A stretch of DNA of 45,082 nt from an uncultured Alphaproteobacteria bacterium. Lineage in GTDB: Bacteria; Electryoneota; RPQS01. The notes beneath the pieces were generated by a model, which did no database searches, was not told where the DNA came from, and worked only from the letters and a program-made list of their open reading frames with translations. The position numbers and the translations under genes were made by a program. The stretch covers positions 1 through 45,082 of the forward strand of contig CAYJKM010000004.1 of NCBI GenBank assembly GCA_964370805.1, read 5' to 3'. Each line of letters starts with the position of its first letter. Position 1 is the first letter of the stretch. This document shows, in pieces, positions 6,500 through 38,215 of this stretch.

Positions 6500-6867
6500 T
6501 GCAGTTGAATGCTGTGCTGTAGGTGGCACACACCAACCCGTCACTTTTTTAAGCGGTCGATAGGGTCGGACTATGCCCGTCGGGCCCGGCGCAGACGGGC
6601 CAATTCGGCACCCAGACCGACCCCAACCAATTCCCCGTATTGGTTGAGGCCAGCACGCCTCTCTTTCCCCTATCTTTCCATTTCCGATCTCTAAGTAACT
6701 CCAGTGCCAATCCGACCCAACCTCAACTCTGTCTTGAAATTGAACAAACTGACAATTAACAACTGCTTTTTAGGAACATTAATGCTTATCATATCGTCGA
6801 ATAGACGGACATATGCCGTCTACAACGGAGTTGTGCACTTCACAAACCCAAGATGAGAAAGTTATTG

Positions 6868-7725
6868 TTAATATTCGTAGTTGTGTCTGCTGTCAGTGTA
6901 CTCCCATGCAGTGAGATCGTTGTTAAAAAAGCCGCAGGCGGCGAGAGCATGGGGATTCCCCGCAAAGTCGTAGTAGGTCTCAATAATCCGAAAGTACAGG
7001 CGAGCCTGCTTGTTGATAAGAGAATCAATCAACCCCTGACTCAAAACCCTGTCGGAGCTACCAATGGGATATGGAATATTTACTCCGATAGAGGCTCCGC
7101 TTTTTTCTGGGATTATACTCCTTCTGTCGGGGAAAATGTCATCCGTCAAACCTACGGCCGTTTGTGTGAAGTTATTCCAATCGTAAGCAGGGCTGTTTCC
7201 AGTGTTGATAATTTCAGCACTACACCGGACAACTTCGCCAGCCTTCATGAGCCTGAAGTTTTTCAACGGAATCAGAGCCTTGACCGAAAGATAAGCGCGG
7301 TTCGCGACAACGGCAGACTCTCGCATGATGTCGGTCTGTTGTTCCATGAAGGCACTCTGCCCAGAGATGATCGTATTCTGTTTTTCCATGAGCGTAGTTT
7401 GCCGAGACATACTGACGGTCTGGGAGCCCATGAGGTCAGCTTGCTTGCTCATAATCCCAGTTTGCCTACTCAGAACGCAAAGTTGAAAAATGGTAGTCCC
7501 AGCCATAACAACAGTAGCAAGCATTATTGTAAAGTTGATACCTCGTCCACTTTTTTCTTCGTGGACGTATTTACATCTATCGGACTCGTTAGTTGTGGAG
7601 CCTTTCTCGCCCTTTACCCCGTTATCTTTCGAAGTTGGTTCTGGTGGGATGCCACCTTGGCTCCTTGTGGAGTCTTCATTATTCTCTTTACCATTCTTGG
7701 GGCTTGACTCTGTGCCATTAGTCAT
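6868..7725 (-). CDS. Single-pass membrane protein of unknown function: disordered N-terminus, TM helix, seven tandem heptads, C-terminal beta-rich domain
   Basis: AAGGAG sits 7 nt upstream of the ATG at 7725; the track ORF begins at a GTG at 7746. The TM segment is INFTIMLATVVMAGTTIFQLCVL. The heptads are SRQTGIM SKQADLM GSQTVSM SRQTTLM EKQNTII SGQSAFM EQQTDIM. The surrounding DNA is AT-rich. Confidence 0.6.
   Translation of the reverse strand: MTNGTESSPKNGKENNEDSTRSQGGIPPEPTSKDNGVKGEKGSTTNESDRCKYVHEEKSGRGINFTIMLATVVMAGTTIFQLCVLSRQTGIMSKQADLMGSQTVSMSRQTTLMEKQNTIISGQSAFMEQQTDIMRESAVVANRAYLSVKALIPLKNFRLMKAGEVVRCSAEIINTGNSPAYDWNNFTQTAVGLTDDIFPDRRSIIPEKSGASIGVNIPYPIGSSDRVLSQGLIDSLINKQARLYFRIIETYYDFAGNPHALAACGFFNNDLTAWEYTDSRHNYEY
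7324..7470 (-). repeat. Seven degenerate 21-nt tandem repeats encoding the heptad array (consensus S-x-Q-T-x-L/I-M)
   Basis: Within aa 93-141 of the track ORF, Gln recurs every 7 residues in all seven repeats. Met recurs every 7 residues in six of seven repeats, with Ile in the fifth. Confidence 0.7.
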
Positions 7726-8564
7726 GGAGATCTCCTTCTTAAACACAAGATAAAAGCTCGTCCCCTGTGAGACGAGCTACGAAAAATCGGGCTGGGGCAG
7801 CCCCTACTACAACACACTGCGACCAGCCGTAAATCGCCATGAGTGGAGAGCCTCAAAGAGGTCGCCCCGGCTTTACTTATGGTGTGCAGCTCTGACAACC
7901 GCCCCAGAGCAATATCTTGATCTCATGGCATCGCGCCATAAAAAAGACCTGCATTGTCCGTGAAAACTCCACAGGCGGTTATTTCCGCAAGGCCTCGCTG
8001 TGGGGGTTCCCCACAGTGCCCTTGCATAGTAACGTCTTATGCCTTGCCTTTTTTGTAGATCGTTATGTCAGACGGTTCGACGTTCACGCGTCGGAGTAAG
8101 GTACGATCCTGTCAATAGCTTCGCCAACACAGCGAAAACCTGTGTGGTCACGAGTCCTCCTTTGGTTTAGACCCTATGGGAGTCCTCTTCTATTGAGAGG
8201 TTAGTGCAAAAATATAAAGCAATTTCCAGAGAGTCAAGCGGTTTCGGTTGATTCTCTGCGAGCAGGTCTTTGACATTGAAAAGGAGGACGATCGGGGCAA
8301 ACAGGCAATCCCGACCGGAAGATATTGACTTTCCGTCCGTTAGGTTCCGGCCGGTTTGCAGTAGCCGTACCCGGCTCGGCGAGACACGGGATCCGCTTCA
8401 TCTGTCATCGCGCTTCTGACATCTCTCCATACCAAAGAGTAGTTACGAGGCTTCGTTCCGTCACTTTTCCCGCTCACACGCAACCCTTAACTCCTGACAT
8501 CCTTGCACATGGTCTTCGCCCCTCACCAAATCGACCAAACCGTAATTGTCATCCTGAAGCCATT

Positions 8565-14023: not shown

Positions 14024-15574
14024 ATGAGTCAGAACGGCTATCACGTAAACTCGAACCGCCTCGTCGACGTCCATGCCGGATCGGCACGGGGTTCGGTTGC
14101 CACTCGCACGGCAGCGGAGGAGCAGCAGTTCCTCGACCACGTGCGGAGTCGCGTGGTCGGGGCCAACCTGCAGATCGAGACGGTGTTTGGCGTGAAGCCG
14201 CTGCGGTATTTCGATTTCATCGCTTCGGGACGATTCCACCGGGACGTGGAGGACGAGCTGGCTGAAAACGTGCTTCCGTACATGGCCAACACACATACGG
14301 AGACCACGTTTACCGGCAAGCTGATGACAGAGCTGTACGAGCAGGCCTTCAAGCGGATCGCGGGCTACATCAATGCCTCCAAAGAGGATGCGCTGATTCC
14401 CGTCGGCTCCGGTTCGACGGGAGCAATCAACCGCCTGATCAGCGTGCTCGGGCTGCGCATCCCCGACCAGCTTGAAGAAGTGCGGCACTGCAAGACCTGT
14501 ATTCCGGAAAGTCAGCGGCCGGTCATCTTCCGCTCGATGATGGAACATCACTCCAACGATATCGCCTGGCGGGAGACAATCGGCGACGTGGAATACGTCG
14601 AGTTTGACGTCGACGGCCGGATTTCGCCGGATGACCTGGAGATCAAACTTGAGCAATACAAGGATCGCCCGTACAAGATCGGCACGTTTAGCGCGGCGTC
14701 AAATGTAACCGGTATTCTGAATGATTGTCACCGGCTCGCACGGGTCTTGCACAAGCACGGCGCGCTGGCGTTTTTCGATTTTGCCGCGGCGGGGCCGTAT
14801 GTGGACATTGACATGCACCCGGAGCATGACGCCGACGGCTTCTTCGACGCGATCTTCTTCTCCGTACATAAATTCTTAGGCGGGCCGCGCGCACCGGGGT
14901 TGTTGGTTGCGAATCGCAAGCTCTTTACGAATCGCGTCCCGGCCGAGCCGGGCGGCGGCACGGTGCTCTATACATCACCGTGGGATCATCGCTATCTTTC
15001 ATCCATCGAGCATCGTGAAACCGGCGGAACACCGCCGATTGTGCAATCGATTCAAGCCGGGTTGGCATTCGATCTCAAAGCTGCCATTGGTGCGGAACGA
15101 ATCGAACGCATCGAACAGGATTACCTCGCACGTGCCTTGAAAGAGTGGTTGGATCACCCCAATCTCTGGGTGCTGGGAAACCCGCAGACGCGGCGGCTGG
15201 GTGTAATCTCGCTGATCTTCCGCGATCTGCATCACAACCTTGCGGCGGCGCTACTTAATGACCTCTATGGAATACAAGTGCGCGGCGGCTGTATGTGCGC
15301 CGGCCCCTATGGTCATCTGTTGCTGCATATTAATCAGAACTACTCAGCAGAAATCCGTCACCGACTGGACGAAGGACACATCGGTGACAAGCCCGGCTGG
15401 GTGCGCGTCAGCCTCTCCCCTACCGTGACCGAAGATGAGTTTCAGGTGATGCTGGAAGCGGTTGACCACATCGCTCGACATGGGCAAGATTACGAAAGTC
15501 GCTACCAGCTCAGTGACGAAACCGGAGAATGGTGCTGGCGAGGAGATCGCGCCTCCGTTATGTTCAGCGGATAG
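14024..15574 (+). CDS. Class-V aminotransferase fold PLP-dependent enzyme (cysteine desulfurase / selenocysteine lyase-like superfamily)
   Basis: A PLP-lysine context is present (FFSVHKFLGGPRAPGLL), along with SGSTGAIN and HHSNDIAW motifs. Length is 516 aa. Confidence 0.8.
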   Translation: MSQNGYHVNSNRLVDVHAGSARGSVATRTAAEEQQFLDHVRSRVVGANLQIETVFGVKPLRYFDFIASGRFHRDVEDELAENVLPYMANTHTETTFTGKLMTELYEQAFKRIAGYINASKEDALIPVGSGSTGAINRLISVLGLRIPDQLEEVRHCKTCIPESQRPVIFRSMMEHHSNDIAWRETIGDVEYVEFDVDGRISPDDLEIKLEQYKDRPYKIGTFSAASNVTGILNDCHRLARVLHKHGALAFFDFAAAGPYVDIDMHPEHDADGFFDAIFFSVHKFLGGPRAPGLLVANRKLFTNRVPAEPGGGTVLYTSPWDHRYLSSIEHRETGGTPPIVQSIQAGLAFDLKAAIGAERIERIEQDYLARALKEWLDHPNLWVLGNPQTRRLGVISLIFRDLHHNLAAALLNDLYGIQVRGGCMCAGPYGHLLLHINQNYSAEIRHRLDEGHIGDKPGWVRVSLSPTVTEDEFQVMLEAVDHIARHGQDYESRYQLSDETGEWCWRGDRASVMFSG

Positions 15575-15653: not shown

Positions 15654-16910
15654 ATGTCTGAGCTTGTGACGCAACAGATACGCGAAACTATCGAGAGCAT
15701 TTACCGTGCGGAATCCCGTCAAATCCTGGCTACGCTGATCCGGCTGATCGGGGATTTCGATCGTGCCGAAGATGCGCTGCAGGATGCCTTTCGCGCCGCC
15801 ATGGAGCAATGGCCGGCCAAAGGCGTGCCCGCCAATCCGCGTGCCTGGCTTATCTCAGTCGGGCGATTCAAGGCGATTGACAACCTGCGACGACGTGCCC
15901 GTGTTGATTCCATGGAGCCGGAGCAGTTTGATCGTTTGGAATCCGAATCCACTGACCCGGCAGACCTCGCCGACGACGTCGTCAAAGACGACCAACTGAG
16001 ACTCATTTTTACTTGCTGTCACCCGGCGCTCGCAGCCGATGCTCGCGCCGCGTTGACTCTCCGCGAGGTCTGCGGCTTGACGACCGAAGAAATCGCTCAT
16101 GCCTACCTCACGACTCCGTCCACGCTTGCTCAGCGAATCGTGCGCGCAAAAGCAAAAATCCGGGACGCTCGCATTCCTTATGATGTGCCATCCGCGACGG
16201 AGCTTCCCGTACGACTGGACACTGTGCTTCAAGTGATTTACCTTGTCTTCAACGAAGGCTATTCGGCATCCTCAGGAGCATCGCTGACGCGACCGGATCT
16301 TTCCGGCGAGGCGATTCGCCTGGGAAGACTGCTCCTGGGGCTTCTGCCCGAACCGGAAGTCGTGGGTCTTTTAGCGCTCATGCTGTTGCACGAATCACGA
16401 CGTCCGGCTCGCACGTCACCGTCAGGCGAGATTATCTTATTGGAGAGTCAAGACCGCTCACTTTGGAATCGAACGTTGATTGCAGAGGGCACGGTCTTAG
16501 TGGAACGTGCGCTGATTTCACGCCGCTTCGGAGCGTACACGATCCAAGCGGCCATCGCGGCCGTTCATGCGGAGGCATCGAGTACGGCGGCGACCGACTG
16601 GGCTCAGATCGTGGGGTTATATGATGTCTTGTATCGAGCTGAGCCGTCGCCGGTCATTGAACTGAATCGTGCCGTGGCAGTGGCCATGCGCGACGGACCG
16701 GCAGCGGGCTTGCAGTTGATTGATGCGATACTACGTCGTGGTGAGCTGACGGATTATCACTGGGCCTATTCCGCTCGCGCGGAATTGTACCGTCGTCTTG
16801 GACGAACCGAGGAGGCACGGGCAGCTTATGAGCAAGCCCTTTCCCTGACGAAGCAGGAACCTGAACGGCAGTTTCTTGAGCAGAAGCTGGAGGCCTTGGA
16901 AAAGGGCTGA
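15654..16910 (+). CDS. ECF sigma factor with a long C-terminal TPR-like extension (ECF42-type)
   Basis: Sigma region 2 (AEDALQDAFRAAMEQW) and region 4 (LTLREVCGLTTEEIAHAYLTTPSTLAQRIVRAKAKI) are followed by a ~200-aa extension. The gene sits immediately upstream of DGPF/YCII genes. Confidence 0.85.
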   Translation: MSELVTQQIRETIESIYRAESRQILATLIRLIGDFDRAEDALQDAFRAAMEQWPAKGVPANPRAWLISVGRFKAIDNLRRRARVDSMEPEQFDRLESESTDPADLADDVVKDDQLRLIFTCCHPALAADARAALTLREVCGLTTEEIAHAYLTTPSTLAQRIVRAKAKIRDARIPYDVPSATELPVRLDTVLQVIYLVFNEGYSASSGASLTRPDLSGEAIRLGRLLLGLLPEPEVVGLLALMLLHESRRPARTSPSGEIILLESQDRSLWNRTLIAEGTVLVERALISRRFGAYTIQAAIAAVHAEASSTAATDWAQIVGLYDVLYRAEPSPVIELNRAVAVAMRDGPAAGLQLIDAILRRGELTDYHWAYSARAELYRRLGRTEEARAAYEQALSLTKQEPERQFLEQKLEALEKG

Positions 16911-16916
16911 AAATCG

Positions 16917-16945
16917 AATGTCGAAATTGCGTATGGTCGAACGAC
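16917..16945 (+). promoter_or_regulatory. ECF-type promoter candidate upstream of the first DGPF gene (GAATGTCGAA-N16-CGAC)
   Basis: TGTCGA at 16919-16924, a 17-nt spacer, then CGAC at 16942-16945, about 85 nt before the ATG at 17030. The same 10-mer GAATGTCGAA recurs at 35425. Confidence 0.45.
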
Positions 16946-17029
16946 TAATGGGTGAAAGCGTTTAAAAGAGGGCGCGGCACCCACGCACAAAGATCAGAGT
17001 TTTCGCGTAAATCTAAAGGAGACAAGACA

Positions 17030-17449
17030 ATGCGGTTTTTGGTTTTGGTCAAGGCCACCAAGCAGTCCGAAACGGGAGTGATGCCGACAGAAGGAATGCT
17101 CGCCGCGATGGGCAAGTTCAATGAAGAACTTCAAAACGCCGGTATGCTGATTGACGGTGCGGGACTCAAGCCGAGTTCGGCCGGAGCTCGCATCAAGTAT
17201 GCGAACGGCAAGCGAACGGTCACTGACGGACCGTTTGCAGAATCCAAGGAGCTGGTCGCCGGATACTGGCTGTTGGAAGCCAAATCTCTGGACGAGGCCA
17301 TCGAATGGCTGCGGCGCGCTCCGATGGATTCCGATCCGCAAATCAGTCCGGAAGCGGAAATTGAGATTCGCCCGCTGTTTCAGTTCGAAGATTTCGGCGA
17401 GAGCGAGGCCGTGGAGAAGATGCGCCAGCTGAATCTGAGTGGAACGTGA
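17030..17449 (+). CDS. YCII-related DGPF-domain protein (type I paralog)
   Basis: MRFLVLVKAT...[22 protein letters not shown], with AAGGAG upstream of the ATG at 17030. The track ORF begins earlier, at a GTG at 16952. Confidence 0.85.
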   Translation: MRFLVLVKATKQSETGVMPTEGMLAAMGKFNEELQNAGMLIDGAGLKPSSAGARIKYANGKRTVTDGPFAESKELVAGYWLLEAKSLDEAIEWLRRAPMDSDPQISPEAEIEIRPLFQFEDFGESEAVEKMRQLNLSGT

Positions 17450-17457
17450 GTCACGCC

Positions 17458-17820
17458 ATGAAGTACGTGTGTCTATGTTACGACGCGGAAGAGAAGCTCA
17501 AGGCAATGCCGCAGAGCGAGTGGAGCGAAGTCGTACGCGAAACCTACGCCTATAACGAAGAACTCACGAAGAAAGGTTACCTACTCGCGGCGCAGTCGCT
17601 TCAATCCGTGCGAAACGCTGTGACGGTCAGAGTGCGGAATGGCAAAGTTTCCACGGTTGACGGTCCCTTCGCTGAGACCAAAGAGCAATTGGGAGGGTTC
17701 TTCCTAATTGAAGCGAGGGATCTGAACGAAGCCATTCAGGTTGCGTCGAAGCTCACCGGAGCGCGCTTGGGATGCATCGAAGTCCGCCAAACCGCGGAGT
17801 TGAGCGAAAAAGACCTTTGA
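17458..17820 (+). CDS. YCII-related DGPF-domain protein (type II paralog)
   Basis: MKYVCLCY...[30 protein letters not shown]. Confidence 0.85.
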   Translation: MKYVCLCYDAEEKLKAMPQSEWSEVVRETYAYNEELTKKGYLLAAQSLQSVRNAVTVRVRNGKVSTVDGPFAETKEQLGGFFLIEARDLNEAIQVASKLTGARLGCIEVRQTAELSEKDL

Positions 17821-17882
17821 AGCCGCGTCATCAGGCAGATCAACTAAGCAACGAAAAACTCGAACCCCCAAGTCCAATACTC

Positions 17883-18497
17883 ATGCGAAACATTATTACT
17901 ACAACATTTGTCACTCTGGATGGTGTGATGCAGGCGCCTGGTGGCCCGAAAGAAGACCGGGCAGGCGACTTTGCCTGGGGCGGATGGTCCTTCCATTATT
18001 GGGACAAGATGATGGGCGATGTCATGGACTCGTTCATGGCACAGTCATTTGATCTGCTTCTGGGCAGACGCACATACGAGATCTTCGCCGGCTACTGGCC
18101 AAAGGAGAAAGGCAACCCAGTGGCCGATAATTTCAACAGGACGGCGAAGTACGTCGTTTCGCACCATCCCGTCGAACTCACGTGGAAGAATTCCATTTTG
18201 ATCACGGGTGACGCGGTTGCCGAACTCAAGAAGTTCAAACAACAAGCCGGCAATGATCTATGGGTGCACGGCAGCGGAAACCTCATTCAGACATTGTTAG
18301 CCAACAACCTCGTAGACCGGATGCATGTCTGGACATTTCCCGTGACGGTCGGCAAGGGCAAGCGCTTGTTTGCCGAAGGGACGAAACCGCAGAGTCTGAA
18401 ACTCGCGGACTCCAAGGTTGCCACGACGGGTGTCACGATTGGCACCTATGAACCGGCAGGAGATTTAGTGACTGGTTCGTTTTCGGGCGAGCTTTAG
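17883..18497 (+). CDS. Dihydrofolate reductase-like (RibD C-terminal domain) family protein
   Basis: MRNIITTTFVTLDGVMQAPGGP...LLLGRRTYEIFAGYW...LWVHGSGNLIQTLL. The start was chosen at the internal ATG at 17883. Confidence 0.8.
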   Translation: MRNIITTTFVTLDGVMQAPGGPKEDRAGDFAWGGWSFHYWDKMMGDVMDSFMAQSFDLLLGRRTYEIFAGYWPKEKGNPVADNFNRTAKYVVSHHPVELTWKNSILITGDAVAELKKFKQQAGNDLWVHGSGNLIQTLLANNLVDRMHVWTFPVTVGKGKRLFAEGTKPQSLKLADSKVATTGVTIGTYEPAGDLVTGSFSGEL

Positions 18498-18537
18498 ATA
18501 TGCAGACGACACCGTATTGATTGAAAAGGAGTTGCAG

Positions 18538-19443
18538 ATGAGCAGATTGAAAAGCTCAATTTGGATTTTTCTGATCGTTGTTCTCACTGCTGGATTAGCA
18601 CATGCGGACGTTCACGGTGGCTATGTCATGGCCAATGGCATAAATTACTACTACGAGATTCACGGCAAAGGCGAGCCGTTATTGCTGCTGCACGGCGGGA
18701 TGGGCTCGATTGAAATGTTCGAGCCCGATTTGAATGCGCTGGCCAGTTACCGAACGGTGATTGCCGTGGACCTCCACGGACACGGTCGCACTGCACTCGG
18801 GGAACGGCCGATTCGCTACACTGATATGGGCGATGATATGGCCGTCATCCTGAAACAGCTCAAATATGATCAGGTGGACGCGACGGGTTATTCGATGGGC
18901 GGCGCTGTGGCGTTTCGGTTGGCCGTGCAACATCCGGAGATGGTGCGGCGACTTGTCCTGGTCTCGGCGGGCTATGCGCAGGATGGATTCCATCCCGAGC
19001 TGCTACCGATGCAAGCAGCGGTTGGAGCGGCAATGGCGGATCAGATGAAGGAGTCCCCGATGTACAAGAGCTATGCTGCCATTGCCCCGCATCCTGAGGA
19101 TTTTCCCAAGTTGCTGGATCGCATGGGTGAACTCATGCGCACGCCTTTTGACTGGACGGAAGACGTCAAGAAACTCACCATGCCGGTCATGCTTATTTAT
19201 GGTGACAGTGACATGTTCCGCCTCGAGCACATCATGCAATTCTACCATCTGCTCGGCGGGGGGTTGCAGGATGCCGGCTGGCAGCGCGAGCACATGTCAC
19301 AGAATCGCTTGGCGATCTTGCCTGACGTGACGCACTACGAAATGTCCATGTCGCCCAGATTGGTCGAAACAGCGTTACCGTTTTTGAACGGCGAGACCGG
19401 TGTGAAAAGTGGTACCAAACAAGTGGAGGGGAAAGAGAAGTGA
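18538..19443 (+). CDS. Secreted alpha/beta-fold hydrolase
   Basis: AAGGAG lies upstream of the ATG at 18538. There is a signal peptide, an oxyanion-hole HGG (LLLLHGGMGS) and the nucleophile elbow GYSMGG. Confidence 0.85.
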   Translation: MSRLKSSIWIFLIVVLTAGLAHADVHGGYVMANGINYYYEIHGKGEPLLLLHGGMGSIEMFEPDLNALASYRTVIAVDLHGHGRTALGERPIRYTDMGDDMAVILKQLKYDQVDATGYSMGGAVAFRLAVQHPEMVRRLVLVSAGYAQDGFHPELLPMQAAVGAAMADQMKESPMYKSYAAIAPHPEDFPKLLDRMGELMRTPFDWTEDVKKLTMPVMLIYGDSDMFRLEHIMQFYHLLGGGLQDAGWQREHMSQNRLAILPDVTHYEMSMSPRLVETALPFLNGETGVKSGTKQVEGKEK

Positions 19444-19518
19444 GCAATCAAACCGTAACCATGCCACAAGAATCAACTGAAGAACATTCTAAGTAACACT
19501 CTTGCGGAGCAGACATAT

Positions 19519-19776
19519 ATGTACAGGCAGAAACTGTCAGGCGTGATTCTCCTGGTGATGGTCTTCACTATCGGAATCGCTGAGGCTAACGTTCGCAGCG
19601 GCTACGTCGCCGCCAACGGCATGCAGATGTACCACGAGAGGTCCGGCGAAGGCTATCCGCTGGTTATGCTGCACGGGGCCTATATGAACATCCCTCAGTG
19701 GGCTCGATCGTTCCCCCACATACAAAAGGAGACTGCAGATGCGCAAAGTCATTTTCGGTATCAACATCACCCTTAA
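19519..19776 (+). pseudogene. N-terminal remnant of a second alpha/beta hydrolase paralog
   Basis: Signal peptide plus NVRSGYVAANGMQMYHERSGEGYPLVMLHGAYMNI parallels DVHGGYVMANGINYYYEIHGKGEPLLLLHGGMGSI of the intact neighbour. Homology is lost after about 19700, and the next gene's RBS and ATG overlap the fragment. Confidence 0.6.
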
Positions 19777-20293
19777 TGGTATTTGCGATCATACGGAGGT
19801 GATTGCGGATGACGAATTGCACGAGTACTTCACCCAGCTCCTGCAGAGCGTTGACCTGGTCGTGTTCGGCCGCCACACCTACCACCTGATGTATCCTTAC
19901 TGGGCTGACGTTGCAAAGCATCAATCGGAGACAACGGCGACGAACGAGTTCGCCCGGACGTTTGATTCACTCGACCGCATTGTCTATTCCAAAACAATGA
20001 CCGGCGCAGAATGGAACAACACCATCATCTCTCGCGCCGACCCACGCGAAGAAATTTCGAAATTGAAGCAGCAGAACGGCAAACATATTTCCATCAGCAG
20101 CATTAGCATCGCCTCCCGCCTTATGCAGGCTGGATTGATTGACGAGTACCATTTTGTTGTTCAACCGATTCTTGCAGTAAGTGGGAAGCGTCTGTTTGAC
20201 ACCGATGAACTCCGGGAAAGGCTTCAGCTAAGACTTGTGGAGTCAATAACACTGCGTTCTGGCGTGGTTGCACTTCATTATCAAAAACCCTGA
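19739..20293 (+). CDS. Dihydrofolate reductase-like (RibD C-terminal domain) family protein
   Basis: MRKVIFGINITLNGI...VVFGRHTY, with AAGGAG upstream. Confidence 0.8.
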   Translation: MRKVIFGINITLNGICDHTEVIADDELHEYFTQLLQSVDLVVFGRHTYHLMYPYWADVAKHQSETTATNEFARTFDSLDRIVYSKTMTGAEWNNTIISRADPREEISKLKQQNGKHISISSISIASRLMQAGLIDEYHFVVQPILAVSGKRLFDTDELRERLQLRLVESITLRSGVVALHYQKP

Positions 20294-20396
20294 TCATCGA
20301 GGAATTGGATATCTGAGCATACGATTCGTTTTGATAGTTGACACAACCGGCATCTCTAATTGGATATTCATTCGATAAAGCAGTGAGGAATGCATT

Positions 20397-20948
20397 ATGA
20401 GAAAATTGATCATGTGGAACATGGTAACCCTTGACGGCTACTTTGAAGGTAATCAAAATTGGGACTTATCTTTTCATGACGCTGTCTGGGGCAAAGAACT
20501 TGAAGACGCAAGCATTGAGCAGTTGAAATCAGCCGATATGCTTGTATTCGGAGAGAAGACCTACAAGGGCATGGCAGATTATTGGTCCAAGGCCAGGGGA
20601 GAGATCGCCGAGTACATGAACAAACTCTCGAAAGTTGTGTGTTCGAATAAGCTTGAGACGGCCGCTTGGGAGAACACAACGATCATGCGCGACGCGGTTT
20701 CCGAGCTGCCGAAATTAAAACGGGAAGGTGATGGGAGCATGTTTGTATTCGGGAGCGGTATTCTTTCGGAGTCTCTTATGAAAGCAGACCTCTTCGATGA
20801 ATACCGTCTGTGCGTCGTCCCCGTTTTCTTGGGCAAGGGCAGGCGCCTGTTCGACGAAGGGCTGCCGTATCAAAACCTAAAGCTTCTCGAAGCGCGTCCG
20901 CTGCAAACCGGCGGGGTTATCTTGAGCTATGCTCCGGACTCAAAGTAG
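20397..20948 (+). CDS. Dihydrofolate reductase-like (RibD C-terminal domain) family protein
   Basis: MRKLIMWNMVTLDGYFEG...LVFGEKTYKGMADYW...FVFGSGIL. Confidence 0.8.
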   Translation: MRKLIMWNMVTLDGYFEGNQNWDLSFHDAVWGKELEDASIEQLKSADMLVFGEKTYKGMADYWSKARGEIAEYMNKLSKVVCSNKLETAAWENTTIMRDAVSELPKLKREGDGSMFVFGSGILSESLMKADLFDEYRLCVVPVFLGKGRRLFDEGLPYQNLKLLEARPLQTGGVILSYAPDSK

Positions 20949-20951
20949 GAA

Positions 20952-21449
20952 GTGCTGCCAGAGAAATCTATGGCGAAAAATGAATTACTGCGGATGGACA
21001 ACGTTGGCATCGTCGTCGACGACCTCCAGGCTGCGATCGCGTTCTTCACCGAGCTGGGCCTCAATCTGGAAGGGCGAGCGACGGTTGAAGGAGATTGGGC
21101 AGATGACGTCACCGGCTTGCGCGACATGCGCTGTGAGATCGCCATGATGGTCACCCCCGACGGCCACGGTCGGCTTGAGATCTCGCGTTTTCTGAAGCCG
21201 GCCATCGTCGCCGATCACCGGAACGCTCCAGTGAACGCTCTGGGCTATCTTCGCGTCATGTTCGCCGTTGAGGACATCGATGACGTCGTTGCTCGTCTGC
21301 AAAAGCGTGGTGCCGAACTCGTTGGCAAGGTGGTGCAATATGAGCACATGTACCGACTCTGTTACCTCCGTGGCCCCGAGGGCATCATCATTGCGCTGGC
21401 CGAGCAACTCGGTAACAAATCGATAACGGATGTTATAGGAAATCCCTGA
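20952..21449 (+). CDS. VOC (glyoxalase/bleomycin-resistance/dioxygenase) family protein
   Basis: LRMDNVGIVVDDLQAAIAFFTELGL...GHGRLEI...FAVEDIDDVVARLQKRGAE. The start is ambiguous (GTG at 20952 or ATG at 20970). Confidence 0.8.
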   Translation: MLPEKSMAKNELLRMDNVGIVVDDLQAAIAFFTELGLNLEGRATVEGDWADDVTGLRDMRCEIAMMVTPDGHGRLEISRFLKPAIVADHRNAPVNALGYLRVMFAVEDIDDVVARLQKRGAELVGKVVQYEHMYRLCYLRGPEGIIIALAEQLGNKSITDVIGNP

Positions 21450-21539
21450 CGAAGGAATTTGCCGCCGAAGAAACACTTGAAATTGTCCTGTCCACTCCGG
21501 CTCCTGCCTGTTCATCGGGCAGGCGACTTTGCATTACGA

Positions 21540-21644
21540 AATATGTCGCCCCAATTGGTCGAAACAGCGTTACCCTTCTTGAACGGCGAGAGCAGCGCTC
21601 CGGGCCGGTCGGAGCAGTATAATGGAGCCGAAACGAAACAATAG
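21540..21644 (+). pseudogene. C-terminal remnant of the disrupted alpha/beta hydrolase paralog
   Basis: MSPQLVETALPFLNGE matches MSPRLVETALPFLNGE at the C-terminus of the intact hydrolase. The 20-nt string ttggtcgaaacagcgttacc is identical at 19360-19379 and 21556-21575. Confidence 0.55.
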
Positions 21645-21663
21645 TCGAAAGGATGTTTGAATC

Positions 21664-22071
21664 ATGCGATTCATGATCATCGTCAAGGCCACGAAGGAAT
21701 CGGAAGCGGGGATCTTGCCCGCTGATGAAACGCTCATCGCCGAAATGGCCAATTATCACGAAGAACTCGCAAAAGCCGGTGCGCTGGTTGACGGCTCCGG
21801 TTTGATGCCGACGTCAAAAGGCTGGCGAATCAAGTATGCGGGTGCAATGCGGACCGTGACAGATGGCCCGTTTCCCGAGACCAAAGAACTCATCGCGGGT
21901 TATACGGTGATTCGTGTGGACTCCCGGGCCGAAGCTCTCGAATGGTCCAAGCGTTTTCCAAATCCAACCATTGATGGCAGCGACTGCGAAATTGAAGTGC
22001 GCCAGTTGTACGAGCTGGAGGACTTCGGTGAGACGGAAAGCGTTGATCGCTTGCGTCAGATAGGACTTTAA
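21664..22071 (+). CDS. YCII-related DGPF-domain protein (type I paralog)
   Basis: MRFMIIVKATKESEAG...TVTDGPFPETKELIAGYTVIRV, clearly paralogous to 17030-17449. Confidence 0.85.
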   Translation: MRFMIIVKATKESEAGILPADETLIAEMANYHEELAKAGALVDGSGLMPTSKGWRIKYAGAMRTVTDGPFPETKELIAGYTVIRVDSRAEALEWSKRFPNPTIDGSDCEIEVRQLYELEDFGETESVDRLRQIGL

Positions 22072-22125
22072 CAGTAGTGCCGGGCACACTCGTGCATTAA
22101 ACATCGCCATCCAGGAGAAAATCAC

Positions 22126-23031
22126 ATGAAAGGCATCACACCGCACCTCTGGTTCGACAAAGAAGCGAAAGAGGCCGCCGACTTCTATAGCTCGATCATT
22201 CCCAATTCCAGGGTCACGAACGTAACAACGATTACGGACACGCCGTCCGGCGATTGCGATGTGGTCTCATTCGAGCTTTCCGGTCAGCCGTTCATGGCCA
22301 TCAGCGCGGGGCCGTTCTTCAAGCTCAATCCGTCAATATCGTTCATTGTGAACTTTGATCCGTCGAGGGACAAAGCGGCAAGAGCACATCTGGATGAATT
22401 GTGGGAGAACCTCGCTCGCGGCGGGACCGCGCTAATGCCGCTCGATAAGTACCCGTTCAGCGAACGATACGGTTGGATGCAGGACCGGTACGGCCTCTCA
22501 TGGCAGCTGATCCTCTCCGATCCTGCCGGGGAAGAGCGACCGTTTATTGTGCCGTCGCTCTTGTTTACCGGCGTTGTCGCCGGCCGCGCCGAAGCGGCCA
22601 TTGATTTCTATTGCTCGGTATTCAAGGATGGCAAACGCGGGGTGACCGCTCGCTACCCGAAAGGCATGGAACCGGACAAAGAAGGGACGCTCATGTTCGC
22701 GGATTTTCGCGTACTTAACACGTGGATGGCCGCGATGGACAGTGCTCAGGAGCACAAATTCGCGTTCAACGAAGCCATTTCATTCATGGTCAACTGTGAT
22801 ACCCAAGCAGAAATTGATTACTTTTGGGAGAAACTCTCCGCGCTTCCCGAAGCCGAGCAATGCGGTTGGCTGAAGGATAAGTTCGGCCTTTCCTGGCAGA
22901 TTGTGCCCACTGCCATGAACGAGATGATGGGAAAAGGCACGAAAGAACAGGTCGCCCGCGTGACGCAGGCGTTTCTTCAGATGAAGAAATTCGATCTCGC
23001 GAAGCTGAAGCGAGCGTACGAAGGGAAGTAA
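22126..23031 (+). CDS. Two-domain VOC-superfamily protein (PhnB-like / 3-demethylubiquinone-9 3-methyltransferase-domain type)
   Basis: ITPHLWFDKEAKEAADFYSSIIPNS and the duplicated motif D(R/K)(Y/F)GLSWQ(L/I) indicate a tandem-domain architecture. Confidence 0.75.
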   Translation: MKGITPHLWFDKEAKEAADFYSSIIPNSRVTNVTTITDTPSGDCDVVSFELSGQPFMAISAGPFFKLNPSISFIVNFDPSRDKAARAHLDELWENLARGGTALMPLDKYPFSERYGWMQDRYGLSWQLILSDPAGEERPFIVPSLLFTGVVAGRAEAAIDFYCSVFKDGKRGVTARYPKGMEPDKEGTLMFADFRVLNTWMAAMDSAQEHKFAFNEAISFMVNCDTQAEIDYFWEKLSALPEAEQCGWLKDKFGLSWQIVPTAMNEMMGKGTKEQVARVTQAFLQMKKFDLAKLKRAYEGK

Positions 23032-23071
23032 ACACTAACCGGTTCAAATCGCAAATCCGAGGACACAGACC

Positions 23072-23491
23072 ATGAAGTATATTTGTCTGGGATATCATGA
23101 CGACCAACGATGGGAAACCATGACCGATGCCGAACGCAATGAGTTTATGGACCGGTGTTTCACCTACGATGATGAGTTGCGGGAACGCGGGCACTTTGCC
23201 GGCGGAGAGGCACTGCAGAGTTCACAGAACGCGACCATGTTGCGGTATCGAAATGGCAAGGTCTCTGTGACGGACGGCCCTTTCGCTGAGACCAAAGAAC
23301 AAATCGGAGGAATCCTGATTCTGGAGGCACGAGACCTGAACCATGCCATACAATTGATGTCAAAGCATCCGAGCATGGCGATGGGCGGGAGTTGGGAGAT
23401 CCGTCCCGCGGCAGACTTGTCAGCGCTCGTCGCGGAGAGCAAGGAGCGCCGCGACGCCACACGAGAAGCCCAAAGCATTTCAAGCACTTAG
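23072..23491 (+). CDS. YCII-related DGPF-domain protein (type II paralog)
   Basis: MKYICLGY...[30 protein letters not shown], paralogous to 17458-17820. Confidence 0.85.
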
Positions 23492-23582: not shown

Positions 23583-23655
23583 GGCGCGTTCGTCTAGGGG
23601 TCTAGGACGCTGGCCTCTCACGCCGGTAACAGGGGTTCGAATCCCCTACGCGCTA
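23583..23655 (+). tRNA. tRNA-Glu (anticodon CUC); no encoded CCA
   Basis: Hand-folded cloverleaf: acceptor GGCGCGT/ACGCGCT, D arm GTCT-AGGGGTCTA-GGAC, anticodon arm CTGGC-CTCTCAC-GCCGG, variable loop TAAC, T arm AGGGG-TTCGAAT-CCCCT. The layout closely resembles E. coli tRNA-Glu. Confidence 0.92.
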
Positions 23656-23665
23656 CATAAAAAAC

Positions 23666-35537: not shown

Positions 35538-36077
35538 ATGAGTATGAACGCATCCGAAAATCCTCGAGGGACCCGTCTGGACGCGCGCCAGATTGCCGAC
35601 TACTGCGAACGTTACTACGGCGCGATCTTTCGTTACGTCGCGTACCGGGTAAATCATCGAACAGATGCCGAGGATCTTGCGTCGGAGGTTTTCGTGCGCG
35701 CCCTCGAGTCACAAACTCCAGTGCAGGTCTCTGCGCTTGGCTTTCTCTATCGCATCGCCGAAAACCTCATCATTGATTATTATCGCCGTTCGGCCAATCG
35801 CAAAAAGGTCTTCGAAGACGGCACTGCCGAAGAACTCCTCCTGATTGCCGATCCCGGCCCCGGTGATCTCACCGGCCGAATCGATCTTGCAAACAGCCTC
35901 AAGTCATTATCCGGCGAACAATATCTGGTGGTCGTCATGCGCTTCTTAGAGGGCTATTCGATTCAGGATGTGGCTGCTGCGCTGGGCAAAACGCCGGGAG
36001 CCGTCAAGGCTCTGCAGTTCCGTGCTTTGGTGAATCTGCGCAATGCGCTCGGAGTCAGATTGCATGAAACGACATAG
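35538..36077 (+). CDS. ECF (sigma-24 type) RNA polymerase sigma factor
   Basis: Region 2 (AEDLASEVFVRAL, IIDYYRR) and region 4 (VVVMRFLEGYSIQDVAAALGKTPGAVKALQFRALVNLR). Confidence 0.9.
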   Translation: MSMNASENPRGTRLDARQIADYCERYYGAIFRYVAYRVNHRTDAEDLASEVFVRALESQTPVQVSALGFLYRIAENLIIDYYRRSANRKKVFEDGTAEELLLIADPGPGDLTGRIDLANSLKSLSGEQYLVVVMRFLEGYSIQDVAAALGKTPGAVKALQFRALVNLRNALGVRLHETT

Positions 36078-36801
36078 CTCAAGATTAGCAGACCTGCTCC
36101 AATCAGCGCTCGAAGGTCGTACTCCCACAGATCTTACGGAACAGGAGCGCAAGGATGTCGCGCCGCTGATTAACGTGGCTGAGCAGCTTCGCGAGTTGCC
36201 GTGCCTTGAACCGGATCCGTCCGCCATTGTCCGTTGTCTTGCCCGCCTTGAGCGTGAAGAAGCGCCGGCTTCAAGACGGGTCGTTCGGCATGCTCGTCGG
36301 AGTCTCGTTTTGGCCTATGCTGCTTCGTTTGTCGTTATGATGTTGATCGTCGGCGGGGTTGCGGTAGCGACGGCGCATTCAAGTCTGCCCGGGGAGCTTC
36401 TTTATCCGGTCAAACGCGCCAGCGAAGACGTGCGCCTCTTCTTCACGACAAATTCCGCAGGGCGCGTTGAGTGGTGCGCTTGTTTGTCCCAGCGGCGACT
36501 CGACGAATTTGTTGCCATCGCCAAGTCAGGCACAATTCGCGGCAAGACTCTGCTGGCCATGCAAAAGGCCAATCACTGCGCGCAAGTGGCGGCAGAACGC
36601 GCATCGGATCCCAAACGTGACATGCTGATCGCGCAAGTAGGGCAACTGTGTCAGGCTCAGGGGGTCGTGCTGCAAGACATGAAAGGCTGGATCCCTGTGA
36701 AGGATACGGCCTTGGTGAATGCCGCCATCGCCGCGTGTGCACGACAATGTAAGGCCTGCTGCATCTGTCCCTCCGGCACGGAATGTGAATATGATCGATA
36801 A
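36064..36801 (+). CDS. Anti-sigma-factor-like single-pass membrane protein (DUF5667-like ectodomain, unverified) with a Cys-rich C-terminus
   Basis: It overlaps the sigma stop by 14 nt. The TM segment is LVLAYAASFVVMMLIVGGVAVATA, followed by LPGELLYPVKRASEDVRLFF. The C-terminus is CARQCKACCICPSGTECEYDR. Confidence 0.65.
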   Translation: MKRHSSRLADLLQSALEGRTPTDLTEQERKDVAPLINVAEQLRELPCLEPDPSAIVRCLARLEREEAPASRRVVRHARRSLVLAYAASFVVMMLIVGGVAVATAHSSLPGELLYPVKRASEDVRLFFTTNSAGRVEWCACLSQRRLDEFVAIAKSGTIRGKTLLAMQKANHCAQVAAERASDPKRDMLIAQVGQLCQAQGVVLQDMKGWIPVKDTALVNAAIAACARQCKACCICPSGTECEYDR

Positions 36802-36852: not shown

Positions 36853-37308
36853 ATGAAGAGCATCCGTCCACGCACTCTGCTCGCCTTGTCCGCACTGTTG
36901 CTCACTGCCGTGATCGTCATGAGTCCGGTCTTCGCCGGAGGCGGCGCCAGCTGCGGCAGCAAGGCCACATCATCCAATTCCGCGTTCTGCCCGCCCGGCT
37001 GCTGCATTTGCCCGGAAGACGAGTGCGGCGACGTCTGCAGCGGAGCGGCGTGCTCGTGGGATCAGTCCCATTGGAAAGGGTTGAAATACAGTTCGGACGG
37101 TCAATTGAAAAAGAGCCTCACCGAGAAGCAGGCCCGCAGCGTTGCCCTCCAGTACTGCAAGAAAGTCGCCGCAGCGAAGGGCCGAGTCGTCAACGTGACC
37201 GAGAACCCCGATTGCTACAATATCACGGTCGAGCAGCGCGACACAAAGCATGTACAGAAGTTCGACATCTCCAAGCACACTGCCTGGATTCGCGTGCTTG
37301 ACGCGTAA
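36853..37308 (+). CDS. Small secreted protein: Cys-rich N-terminal region sharing a CCICP motif with the anti-sigma tail, plus a PepSY-like C-terminal domain (tentative)
   Basis: AAAGGAGAA RBS and signal peptide LLALSALLLTAVIVMSPVFA. Eight Cys residues fall within CGSKATSSNSAFCPPGCCICPEDECGDVCSGAAC. Confidence 0.65.
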   Translation: MKSIRPRTLLALSALLLTAVIVMSPVFAGGGASCGSKATSSNSAFCPPGCCICPEDECGDVCSGAACSWDQSHWKGLKYSSDGQLKKSLTEKQARSVALQYCKKVAAAKGRVVNVTENPDCYNITVEQRDTKHVQKFDISKHTAWIRVLDA

Positions 37309-37342: not shown

Positions 37343-37373
37343 GACCGGGTCAGCCGTTAAGGCTGACCCGGTC
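37343..37373. terminator. Perfect 13-bp palindromic hairpin between convergent genes (GGGTCAGCC family)
   Basis: GACCGGGTCAGCC-gttaa-GGCTGACCCGGTC. Confidence 0.7.
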
Positions 37374-37402: not shown

Positions 37403-38038
37403 TTAACTCACCAAACTTCCTTCCTTGCTGTACACGTTGCCGACGAGCTTTGCGCTTGGCTCCAATGTGACGTCGCCCTCATCCTTCCACTTGGAAGGGC
37501 AGGCCTTGACGGGATGCTTGGACACATGCAGATATGCTTTGAACTTCCGCATGAGCTCGTCAATGTTGCGTCCCACGTTGAAGTAGTTGACATCCTGCGA
37601 CAGCAGTTTCCCATCCGGATTGATGATAAACGTGCCGCGCAGCGCCAGTCCGGATTCTTCATCGTAGACTCCGAACAGCTCCGAGAGTTCATGCGTCGCG
37701 TCCGAACCCATTGGATACTTCACCATGCGCAGTCCGTTTTCGTGGCGTTGCCACGCCAGATGCACGTATTCCGTGTCAGTGCTGACAGTGATCAGCTCCG
37801 CGCCGAGACGGTTAAATCGTTCATGCTGCTCTGCCAGAGCAGCAAATTCCGTCGCTCAAACAAACGTGAAATCGGCCGGATAGAAAAAGAGAATCGTCCA
37901 ATGCTTGGCCGCCTTCGCCGCGGCCAGAGAAAACTCGCCGAATTCGCTTTTGACCGGATCGTACGTCTTGAGAGTGAAGTCGGGAACTTCATGGCCGACT
38001 CTCAATACGTCGTAGCCTTCTTCGCATTCGCAAGCCAT
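37403..38038 (-). CDS. Typical 2-Cys peroxiredoxin (AhpC/Prx1 type) with an in-frame TGA at the peroxidatic Cys position; candidate selenocysteine peroxiredoxin
   Basis: Two track ORFs (37856-38038 and 37403-37765) are in the same frame. Joined, they read FFYPADFTFV-[TGA]-ATEFAAL...HLAW, against the canonical FTFVCPTE. The resolving Cys sits in KACPSKW, and a hairpin lies 12 nt after the TGA. Confidence 0.8.
37825..37843 (-). promoter_or_regulatory. SECIS-like stem-loop downstream of the in-frame UGA
   Basis: GCUGCUC-UGGCA-GAGCAGC, a perfect 7-bp stem with a G-containing apical loop. It begins 12 nt 3' of the UGA at 37858-37856. Confidence 0.55.
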
Positions 38039-38188
38039 CTATGTGCTCCTTTCAGAGGAACGTTGAATCGAATATTCTTTTGGATAAAGAGGTTTGCTTA
38101 GGTAATATACTAAGAGCGGTTTCGAATCGCAAGTATGCATTTTTAATACGATAGTCTGCGTCCGATTTGCAATTCAAATGATAACAAG

Positions 38189-38215
38189 AAAGGTCAGCTC
38201 TCAAAGCTGACCTTT
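38189..38215 (-). terminator. Terminator of the efflux operon (GGTCAGC/GCTGACC family)
   Basis: AAAGGTCAGCT-ctcaa-AGCTGACCTTT, an 11-bp stem that is T-rich on both sides. Confidence 0.6.

Follow-up and report, generated by a model that had tools for sequence, protein, structure and literature searches.

The stretch of DNA analysed here, referred to below as the window, comprises 45,082 nucleotides of contig CAYJKM010000004.1 (assembly GCA_964370805.1). On its minus strand it contains a peroxiredoxin gene, here called prx, whose frame is interrupted by a single in-frame TGA. A sequence-only reading of the same DNA had proposed that this TGA is read as selenocysteine (Sec) in place of the catalytic cysteine, and that a hairpin just beyond it acts as a selenocysteine insertion sequence (SECIS) element. 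The features on which this proposal turns are the following.

37403..38038, minus strand: peroxiredoxin coding sequence, 211 codons including the Sec codon (translation; Pfam AhpC-TSA; alignments to AhpC in the PDB)
38038-38036, minus strand: ATG start of prx (read from the sequence)
37405-37403, minus strand: TAA stop of prx (read from the sequence)
37856..37858, minus strand: in-frame UGA, residue 61, at the peroxidatic position and predicted to be read as selenocysteine (translation; the same TGA in the related contigs L001 and L002)
37825..37843, minus strand: core of the putative bacterial SECIS inside the coding sequence, with a 7-bp stem GCUGCUC/GAGCAGC and the loop UGGCA (or GGC closed by U-A)

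Translation of 38038..37403 yields MACECEEGYD...FFYPADFTFV*ATEFAALAEQ...KACPSKW...SLVS*, in which the TGA at 37858..37856 is the only internal stop. The sequence-only reading had described two open reading frames (ORFs) in the same frame with one TGA between them, and had expected gene callers to split the gene; both points hold. The program-made ORF list gives 37856..38038 (60 amino acids) and 37403..37765 as same-frame fragments, and the public gene calls for the identical locus in two ENA assemblies consist of AhpC-TSA fragments of 60 and 107 amino acids. The 43 codons from the TGA to the next ATG encode conserved peroxiredoxin sequence (ATEFAALAEQ...STDTEYVHLAWQ), and Met105 of the joined frame lies at 37726-37724.

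Profile searches of the joined protein were run with Cys in place of the internal stop. The protein matches Pfam AhpC-TSA (PF00578) over residues 14-145 (E = 7.4e-36), and its AhpC and Prx matches in the PDB range from E = 1e-42 to 1e-31, the best solved relatives being AhpC of E. coli and Salmonella (5b8a and 1yf1; E about 1e-42, HMMER alignments). In the HMMER alignments the UGA position falls on the peroxidatic Cys (Cp) of FTFVCPTE in the AhpC structures, and Cys180 in KACPSKW is aligned to the resolving Cys (Cr) of EVCPAKW. The active-site set is likewise present in alignment with AhpC, comprising P54-A-D-F-T58-F-V-U61 together with R134 (in LRGTF). The best 120 full-length database homologues are all Cys proteins, with 59-71% identity and either FTFVCATEF or FTFVCTTEF at this site. 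The earlier claim that the TGA sits exactly on the catalytic Cys is therefore upheld in two ways, by the Cys column of FTFVCPTE in 5b8a and 1yf1 and by FTFVCATEF in the closest full-length homologues. The comparison of the Cys/Sec column that had been proposed as a check gives the same answer against the solved structures and against the 120 Cys homologues, and the concern that homologues might carry the catalytic Cys in another column did not materialize, as the alignments put it at the UGA position.

The features that define the AhpC/Prx1 (typical 2-Cys) class, namely a thioredoxin-fold domain, a PxxxTxxC-type motif with its Arg, and a VCP-type resolving Cys, are all found in the protein, and the peroxidatic position of the PxxxTxxC motif holds Sec, not Cys. 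These sequence criteria place prx among the typical 2-Cys peroxiredoxins (AhpC/Prx1 class), with predicted Sec at Cp.

The TGA itself recurs in independent data. Over the stretch that they share with the window, contigs in three other ENA assemblies match it at 99.9% identity; of these contigs, L001 and L002 span the codon, and both have TGA. Within prx, L002 differs from the window by two substitutions: a synonymous one and another that turns His into Asp in the N-terminal region; its frame is intact. TGA also serves as the stop codon for 12 of the 30 window genes, which means that the code is the standard one and not reassigned.

Related genes elsewhere carry the same codon. A genome scan for DFTFV-TGA-xTE, with one genome per GTDB species, gave at least 120 matches where chance would give about one (a 40-bit pattern searched in 1.2e12 positions). 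Every one of the 120 matches listed (L004-L123) is a peroxiredoxin gene in which the TGA is in frame and is flanked on both sides by a long conserved ORF; the matches come from many phyla, including cultured Bacillaceae, Desulfothermobacter and Anoxynatronum. Eleven of the matches listed belong to the clade of the window gene, with 62-67% identity (50% for L115). A metagenome scan for DFTFV-[TGA/TGC/TGT]-ATEF, which is a sample and not a census, also gave at least 120 matches (L124-L243), with 102 TGA versus 18 TGY among the matches listed. With both scans combined, TGA is found at this codon in more than 200 orthologous genes. These counts suggest that, in the clade with DFTFV[C/U]ATEF, the Sec form may be the commoner one in environmental DNA; protein databases hold almost only the Cys forms of this clade because the Sec genes are split.

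The hairpin starts 12 nt past the UGA, in a region that encodes Ala-Ala-Leu-Ala-Glu-Gln. Its folding energy, closing U-A pair included, is -14.1 kcal/mol (z -2.9). An extra eighth pair, U-A at 37844/37824, is kept in only 37 of 105 Sec-form sequences and was left out of the element for that reason. The published bacterial SECIS (bSECIS) model sets limits of 3-9 nt for the loop and 4-16 bp for the stem, with a G in the first two loop positions, 16-37 nt from the UGA to the loop and a minimum free energy of -7.5 kcal/mol or lower (PMC13188914). We applied this model in our own implementation, in a version that demands a perfect stem, and the window element passes it with a loop of 3-5 nt, a stem of 7-9 bp, a spacing of 19-20 nt and an energy of -11.7 to -14.1 kcal/mol. 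The perfect 7-bp hairpin with loop UGGCA reported earlier at 37825-37843, 12 nt downstream, is matched exactly; its distance, described then as compatible with bacterial SECIS elements, puts the loop 19-20 nt from the UGA, inside the 16-37 nt of the model, and the hairpin passes the suggested model scan.

Conservation of the hairpin separates the two forms of the clade. All seven stem pairs are kept in 106 of 110 Sec-form sequences, against 2-5 of the seven in the Cys-form sequences (n = 18), and the bSECIS model is passed by 109 of the 110 Sec members versus 0 of the 18 Cys members. In the Sec forms, synonymous entropy at codons +5..+10 (GCU GCU CUG GCA GAG CAG) is 0-0.5 bit, and about 0 at +7, +9 and +10, with 0.7-2.1 bits in the flanking codons (-6..+4 and +11..+13). 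The corresponding values for the Cys forms are 0.5-1.7 bits at +5..+10 and 0.6-1.7 bits in the flanks. Synonymous variation is thus lost only inside the hairpin of the Sec forms, which points to a constraint on the RNA and not on the protein or on codon usage. The loop is UGGCA, with the rare variants UGUCA, UGGGA and UGGCG, and none of the Sec forms of the clade departs from G at loop position 2.

Covariation was assessed in an alignment of 105 distinct Sec-form sequences, with 500 shuffles and with the 3' arm slid by 1-3 columns. Double-sided changes were found at five of the seven core pairs (21 cells), a value reached in 0 of the 500 shuffles, and pairing was 91% in the true register versus 16-54% with the 3' arm slid. 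Several compensations preserve the stem while altering the peptide, including GCCGCUC/GAGCGG (AALAER), GCUGAUC/GAUCAGC (ADLADQ), GCGGCCC/GGGCUGC (AALAGL) and GCUGACC/GGUCAGU (ADLAGQ). In these loci the RNA structure of the SECIS thus appears visibly to steer the protein sequence. Peptide-altering compensations, among them also ADLANQ, occur in L134, L152, L153, L169, L170, L175, L178, L189, L205, L213 and L115. Among the three nearest Cys relatives, the one compared at the DNA level was P0001 (67% identity; DNA in L244), which encodes AALAEL as GCC GCG TTA GCA GAA CTG; the stretch that matches the hairpin position folds at only -1.9 kcal/mol. Model fit and covariation together identify the window hairpin as a probable SECIS, with SelB as its putative binding partner.

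Collectively, the TGA in the Cp column, the catalytic residues, the same TGA elsewhere, the covariation of the SECIS and the standard genetic code strongly support the proposed selenoprotein. We put the probability at roughly 90% that the locus encodes, in a single intact gene, a typical 2-Cys peroxiredoxin (AhpC/Prx1 class) that contains selenocysteine.

Some results weigh against this assignment. Neither the 45-kb window nor the 6 kb past its right end, as covered by L001 and L002, yielded tRNA-Sec, selA, selB or selD. With ARAGORN, the window and 1.57 Mb of related loci were both negative for tRNA-Sec, a search of the same 1.57 Mb for the N-terminal motif of SelD came back empty, and the only tRNA in the window is tRNA-Glu. 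A perfect, model-compatible hairpin follows 54 of the 1,679 TGA triplets in the window (3.2%); taken alone the hairpin is unremarkable, and it is its conservation and covariation in orthologues that put it beyond chance. No Rfam family matches the hairpin, either in the whole window at gathering thresholds or in 37700-37950 at permissive E-values, a null that is uninformative because Rfam holds no matching model; these scans gave only tRNA-Glu and two chance matches. The machinery may lie elsewhere in the genome. Among named relatives of MetH, the best come from candidate division KSB1 (79-80% identity), and the source organism is probably a member of that division, an assignment made from this one marker protein. 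According to a survey of metagenome-assembled genomes (MAGs) of KSB1, every clade except one has selA, selB and selD (PMC9012183), which supports the Sec reading indirectly.

If the Sec-decoding machinery had been lost or were absent, the locus would be a relic in which UGA-61 terminates and only a 60-residue fragment is made. The failure to find sel genes and tRNA-Sec in the window or its flanks fits this explanation, which is at odds with the intact 211-codon frame and its full set of catalytic residues, with a SECIS of consensus sequence and 7/7 pairs, with a strain variant (L002) that shows two substitutions only and no frame disruption, and with the general presence of selABD in the KSB1 MAGs. 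We consider a relic improbable.

The UGA could also be decoded in another way, through a reassigned code that inserts Trp or Gly, through near-cognate read-through, or through insertion of Cys by the Sec pathway. Misincorporation of Cys at Sec codons is known in other systems under selenium limitation and gives the last variant a precedent; nothing speaks for reassignment. TGA stops 12 of the 30 window genes, Trp or Gly at Cp would kill the enzyme, homologues align only Cys or Sec at this position, and the strong selection on the SECIS speaks for decoding that depends on SelB, which leaves these variants together quite improbable.

A sequencing or assembly error, with TGC or TGT as the true codon of an ordinary Cys peroxiredoxin, would require a change of only one base, and the related contigs have low coverage (about 6x, from the contig names). 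The TGA is shared, however, by the window and two separately assembled samples, and it comes with a hairpin and a choice of codons that mark the Sec forms and that none of the 18 Cys forms shows, so that an error is very improbable. Equally hard to sustain is the notion, implicit in the automatic gene calls, of two small genes encoding a 60-aa N-terminal peptide and a 107-120-aa C-terminal protein with the hairpin as an attenuator or regulatory element, which the alignments effectively refute, since each half falls short of a complete thioredoxin fold, the 43 conserved codons between the TGA and the first ATG contain neither a start codon nor a ribosome-binding site, and the best 120 Cys homologues are all single proteins of 200-215 amino acids.

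On the reading of prx as a single selenoprotein gene, and by analogy with the known bacterial mechanism, the hairpin 12 nt past UGA-61 would act as a bacterial SECIS that recruits SelB·GTP·Sec-tRNA(Sec) to the ribosome, and UGA-61 would be decoded as Sec instead of stop. The selenolate of Sec61, in a pocket formed by Pro54, Thr58 and Arg134, would reduce H2O2 or organic hydroperoxides and be converted to the selenenic acid. Cys180 of the partner subunit would then resolve the selenenic acid to a selenenylsulfide, and a thioredoxin-type reductant would regenerate the enzyme. Both the peroxidase activity and the intersubunit bond are predicted from family membership.

The reductant is suggested by gene context. 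No AhpF or pyridine-nucleotide-disulfide oxidoreductase was found among the window genes scanned, and neighbourhood clustering of 112 Sec-prx loci gave no conserved reductase or operon partner; the lack of an adjacent AhpF leads us to infer a thioredoxin-type reductant for the window gene. The sole recurrent neighbours in the 112 loci, with names read by eye, are putative Fur/PerR-like regulators at about 10 loci and Rrf2-like regulators at about 12, each in only some 10% of the loci, which would fit a role in oxidative stress.

Sec-containing peroxiredoxins, whose existence the sequence-only reading had noted with PrxU as its example, form an established and abundant selenoprotein family (PMC1088965, PMC13188914). 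Among the prokaryotic selenoproteins with experimental verification, PMC13188914 includes a TxxU peroxiredoxin, PrxU of Eubacterium acidaminophilum (Sohling et al. 2001), and in Desulfococcus multivorans a Sec-peroxiredoxin has been split into two locus tags (PMC5109826). The window protein resembles PrxU in its AhpC-TSA fold, in Sec at the peroxidatic position of DFTFVU[A/P]TE, in a SECIS hairpin within the ORF just past the UGA, and in having no AhpF adjacent. It differs from PrxU in several respects. Its score on the PrxU model NF040737 is 180 bits, below the cut-off of 270, whereas the PrxU-type sequence from Anoxynatronum (L034) scores 383 bits; its Sec clade mates L004 and L218 score 176 and 185 bits on NF040737, and 176-199 bits over the PrxU and AhpC models. 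Identity to PrxU is about 44-47%. At the resolving-Cys column, Thr is the usual residue of PrxU-type sequences (66 of 92), whereas the window's clade keeps Cys in about 95%, and the PrxU-type SECIS has a GGUC or AGUU loop 17 nt past the UGA, compared with UGGCA/GGC at 19-20 nt in the window. By these sequence comparisons the window gene is not a PrxU orthologue, and its clade is distinct from PrxU. Most of the genome-scan matches listed (L004-L123) are of the PrxU type, with LCFYPGDFTFVU, and the strict perfect-stem version of the bSECIS model is passed by 79 of 117 genome-scan sequences.

Compared with AhpC (TIGR03137; 1yf1, 5b8a), the motifs FTFV[C/U]xTE and xCP(A/S)KW align residue for residue, but Sec replaces Cys at Cp, the score on TIGR03137 is 178.8 bits against a cut-off of 272, no ahpF lies beside the gene, and the window protein has an N-terminal extension with a CxC motif. 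This motif (MACECEEG) is encoded at 38038-37990 on the minus strand. Such an N-terminal motif, CC or CxC, precedes the first strand in about half of the clade, in Sec and Cys forms alike (P0001-P0120, L124-L243), with variants such as MTEICCG, MSNDCC and MEEVCCC; classical AhpC has no such feature.

The Cys orthologues of the clade (P0001-P0120; from Nitrospirota, Planctomycetota, Thermoanaerobaculia and others, with the annotation peroxiredoxin) are the closest known relatives, alike over their full length at 59-71% identity and sharing FTFV-x-ATEF, the resolving Cys and often the N-terminal CC motif. They differ in having TGC or TGT for TGA, in lacking the hairpin and in codons +5..+10 that vary freely. 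Sec and Cys forms interleave in the clade, and a rough neighbour-joining tree with parsimony gives at least 24 changes of state, a figure that is indicative only. Interleaving of this kind agrees with the known dynamic exchange of Sec and Cys described in PMC1794560. The hairpin shares with the bacterial SECIS consensus (bSECISearch, Zhang and Gladyshev; PMC13188914) and with the E. coli fdhF SECIS a stem-loop right after the UGA in the ORF and a small apical loop with a G followed by a G, and its spacing, stem and energy lie within the limits of that consensus. It is not known to resemble the E. coli fdh elements in sequence.

Several further features flank prx.

38046..38049, minus strand: Shine-Dalgarno-like GGAG, 7 nt 5' of the ATG (read from the sequence)
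38104..38132, minus strand: sigma-70-like promoter match TTGCGA-17-TATATT upstream of prx (consensus match only)
38189..38215, minus strand: terminator-like hairpin with a T tail, at the end of the upstream RND efflux operon
37343..37373, no strand: perfect inverted repeat of 13 bp, GACCGGGTCAGCC/GGCTGACCCGGTC, in the spacer that separates prx and the convergent 151-aa gene

The promoter-like match at 38104..38132 is weak (one found versus 0.7 expected in shuffles). The terminator-like hairpin of the upstream RND operon implies that prx is transcribed on its own, and with its own ribosome-binding site and promoter-like site prx appears to be monocistronic. The inverted-repeat region at 37343-37373 folds at -33 kcal/mol (z -5.7), with no T run on the prx strand, and is probably a transcription terminator shared by prx and the convergent gene.

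Two candidates related to selenium were considered and rejected. A scan of the window for TGA-joined ORF pairs, as a sign of a second selenoprotein, gave only shadow ORFs that overlap real genes. A class-V aminotransferase of 516 amino acids (14024-15574, plus strand) was considered as a selenocysteine lyase, but scores 33 bits on SclA against a cut-off of 525; it is distantly SufS-like (137 bits versus a cut-off of 475).

The convergent gene (36853-37308, plus strand) encodes a 151-aa, signal-peptide-like, Cys-rich protein that contains CPPGCCICPEDECGDVCSGAAC and has no Pfam or NCBIfam match. Before it lie an ECF sigma factor (35538-36077, plus strand) and an overlapping DUF5667 anti-sigma-like protein (36043-36801) that ends in ...CKACCICPSGTECEYDR. 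The DUF5667 protein and the 151-aa protein have a CCICP motif in common (BLASTP E of 0.009 only). A second sigma factor, of the sigma-70/ECF type with DUF6596 and a TPR tail, opens the plus-strand region 15654-23491. Behind it comes a series of small paralogous genes: four YCII, three RibD_C, a glyoxalase, an alpha/beta hydrolase and a duplicated protein with a 3-demethylubiquinone-9 3-methyltransferase domain. The tRNA-Glu(CUC) at 23583-23656 follows directly on this series. At 6853-7707 (plus strand, 284 aa) and 6868-7746 (minus strand, 292 aa), two ORFs are nearly coextensive on opposite strands, and neither has a Pfam match. Large secreted or surface proteins are encoded at 30680-35347 (minus strand) and 110-4441 (plus strand) of the window and at 1-4880 of L002. 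The set includes a gingipain-like peptidase C25 with its propeptide, an InhA-like protein with a MAM domain and a 1,443-aa CARDB/NosD protein, together with, beyond the window, a protein of about 2,450 amino acids with Por_Secre_tail (type IX secretion). This set of surface proteins fits an origin in the FCB group or in KSB1.

The gene is a genuine but ordinary selenoprotein of a known family, possibly from a clade that is not separately curated. Current knowledge is not overturned; Sec-peroxiredoxins are already known and are common in environmental bacteria. A more specific picture, which we rate as less likely than not, would set apart within the typical 2-Cys (AhpC-like) peroxiredoxins a distinct clade that is uncurated, in which Sec is the majority form in environmental DNA (102 TGA versus 18 TGY among the matches listed), the resolving Cys is kept and would support selenenylsulfide catalysis, a near-invariant SECIS of its own dictates and co-evolves with AALAEQ, about half of the members have an N-terminal CC/CxC, and the window would provide the first documented case from KSB1.

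The main value of the finding is a correction of annotation, in that one gene for an antioxidant selenoenzyme has been called as fragments of 60 and 107 amino acids, and the same error of splitting affects hundreds of related environmental genes. The clade also offers an exceptionally clean natural data set, with more than 100 pairs of Sec and Cys orthologues and a short, well-defined SECIS, that could be used to ask what limits an RNA element inside a coding sequence sets to the evolution of the protein, and what favours Sec over Cys at Cp. For the source organism, probably a member of KSB1, the gene suggests that selenium is used for defence against peroxides.

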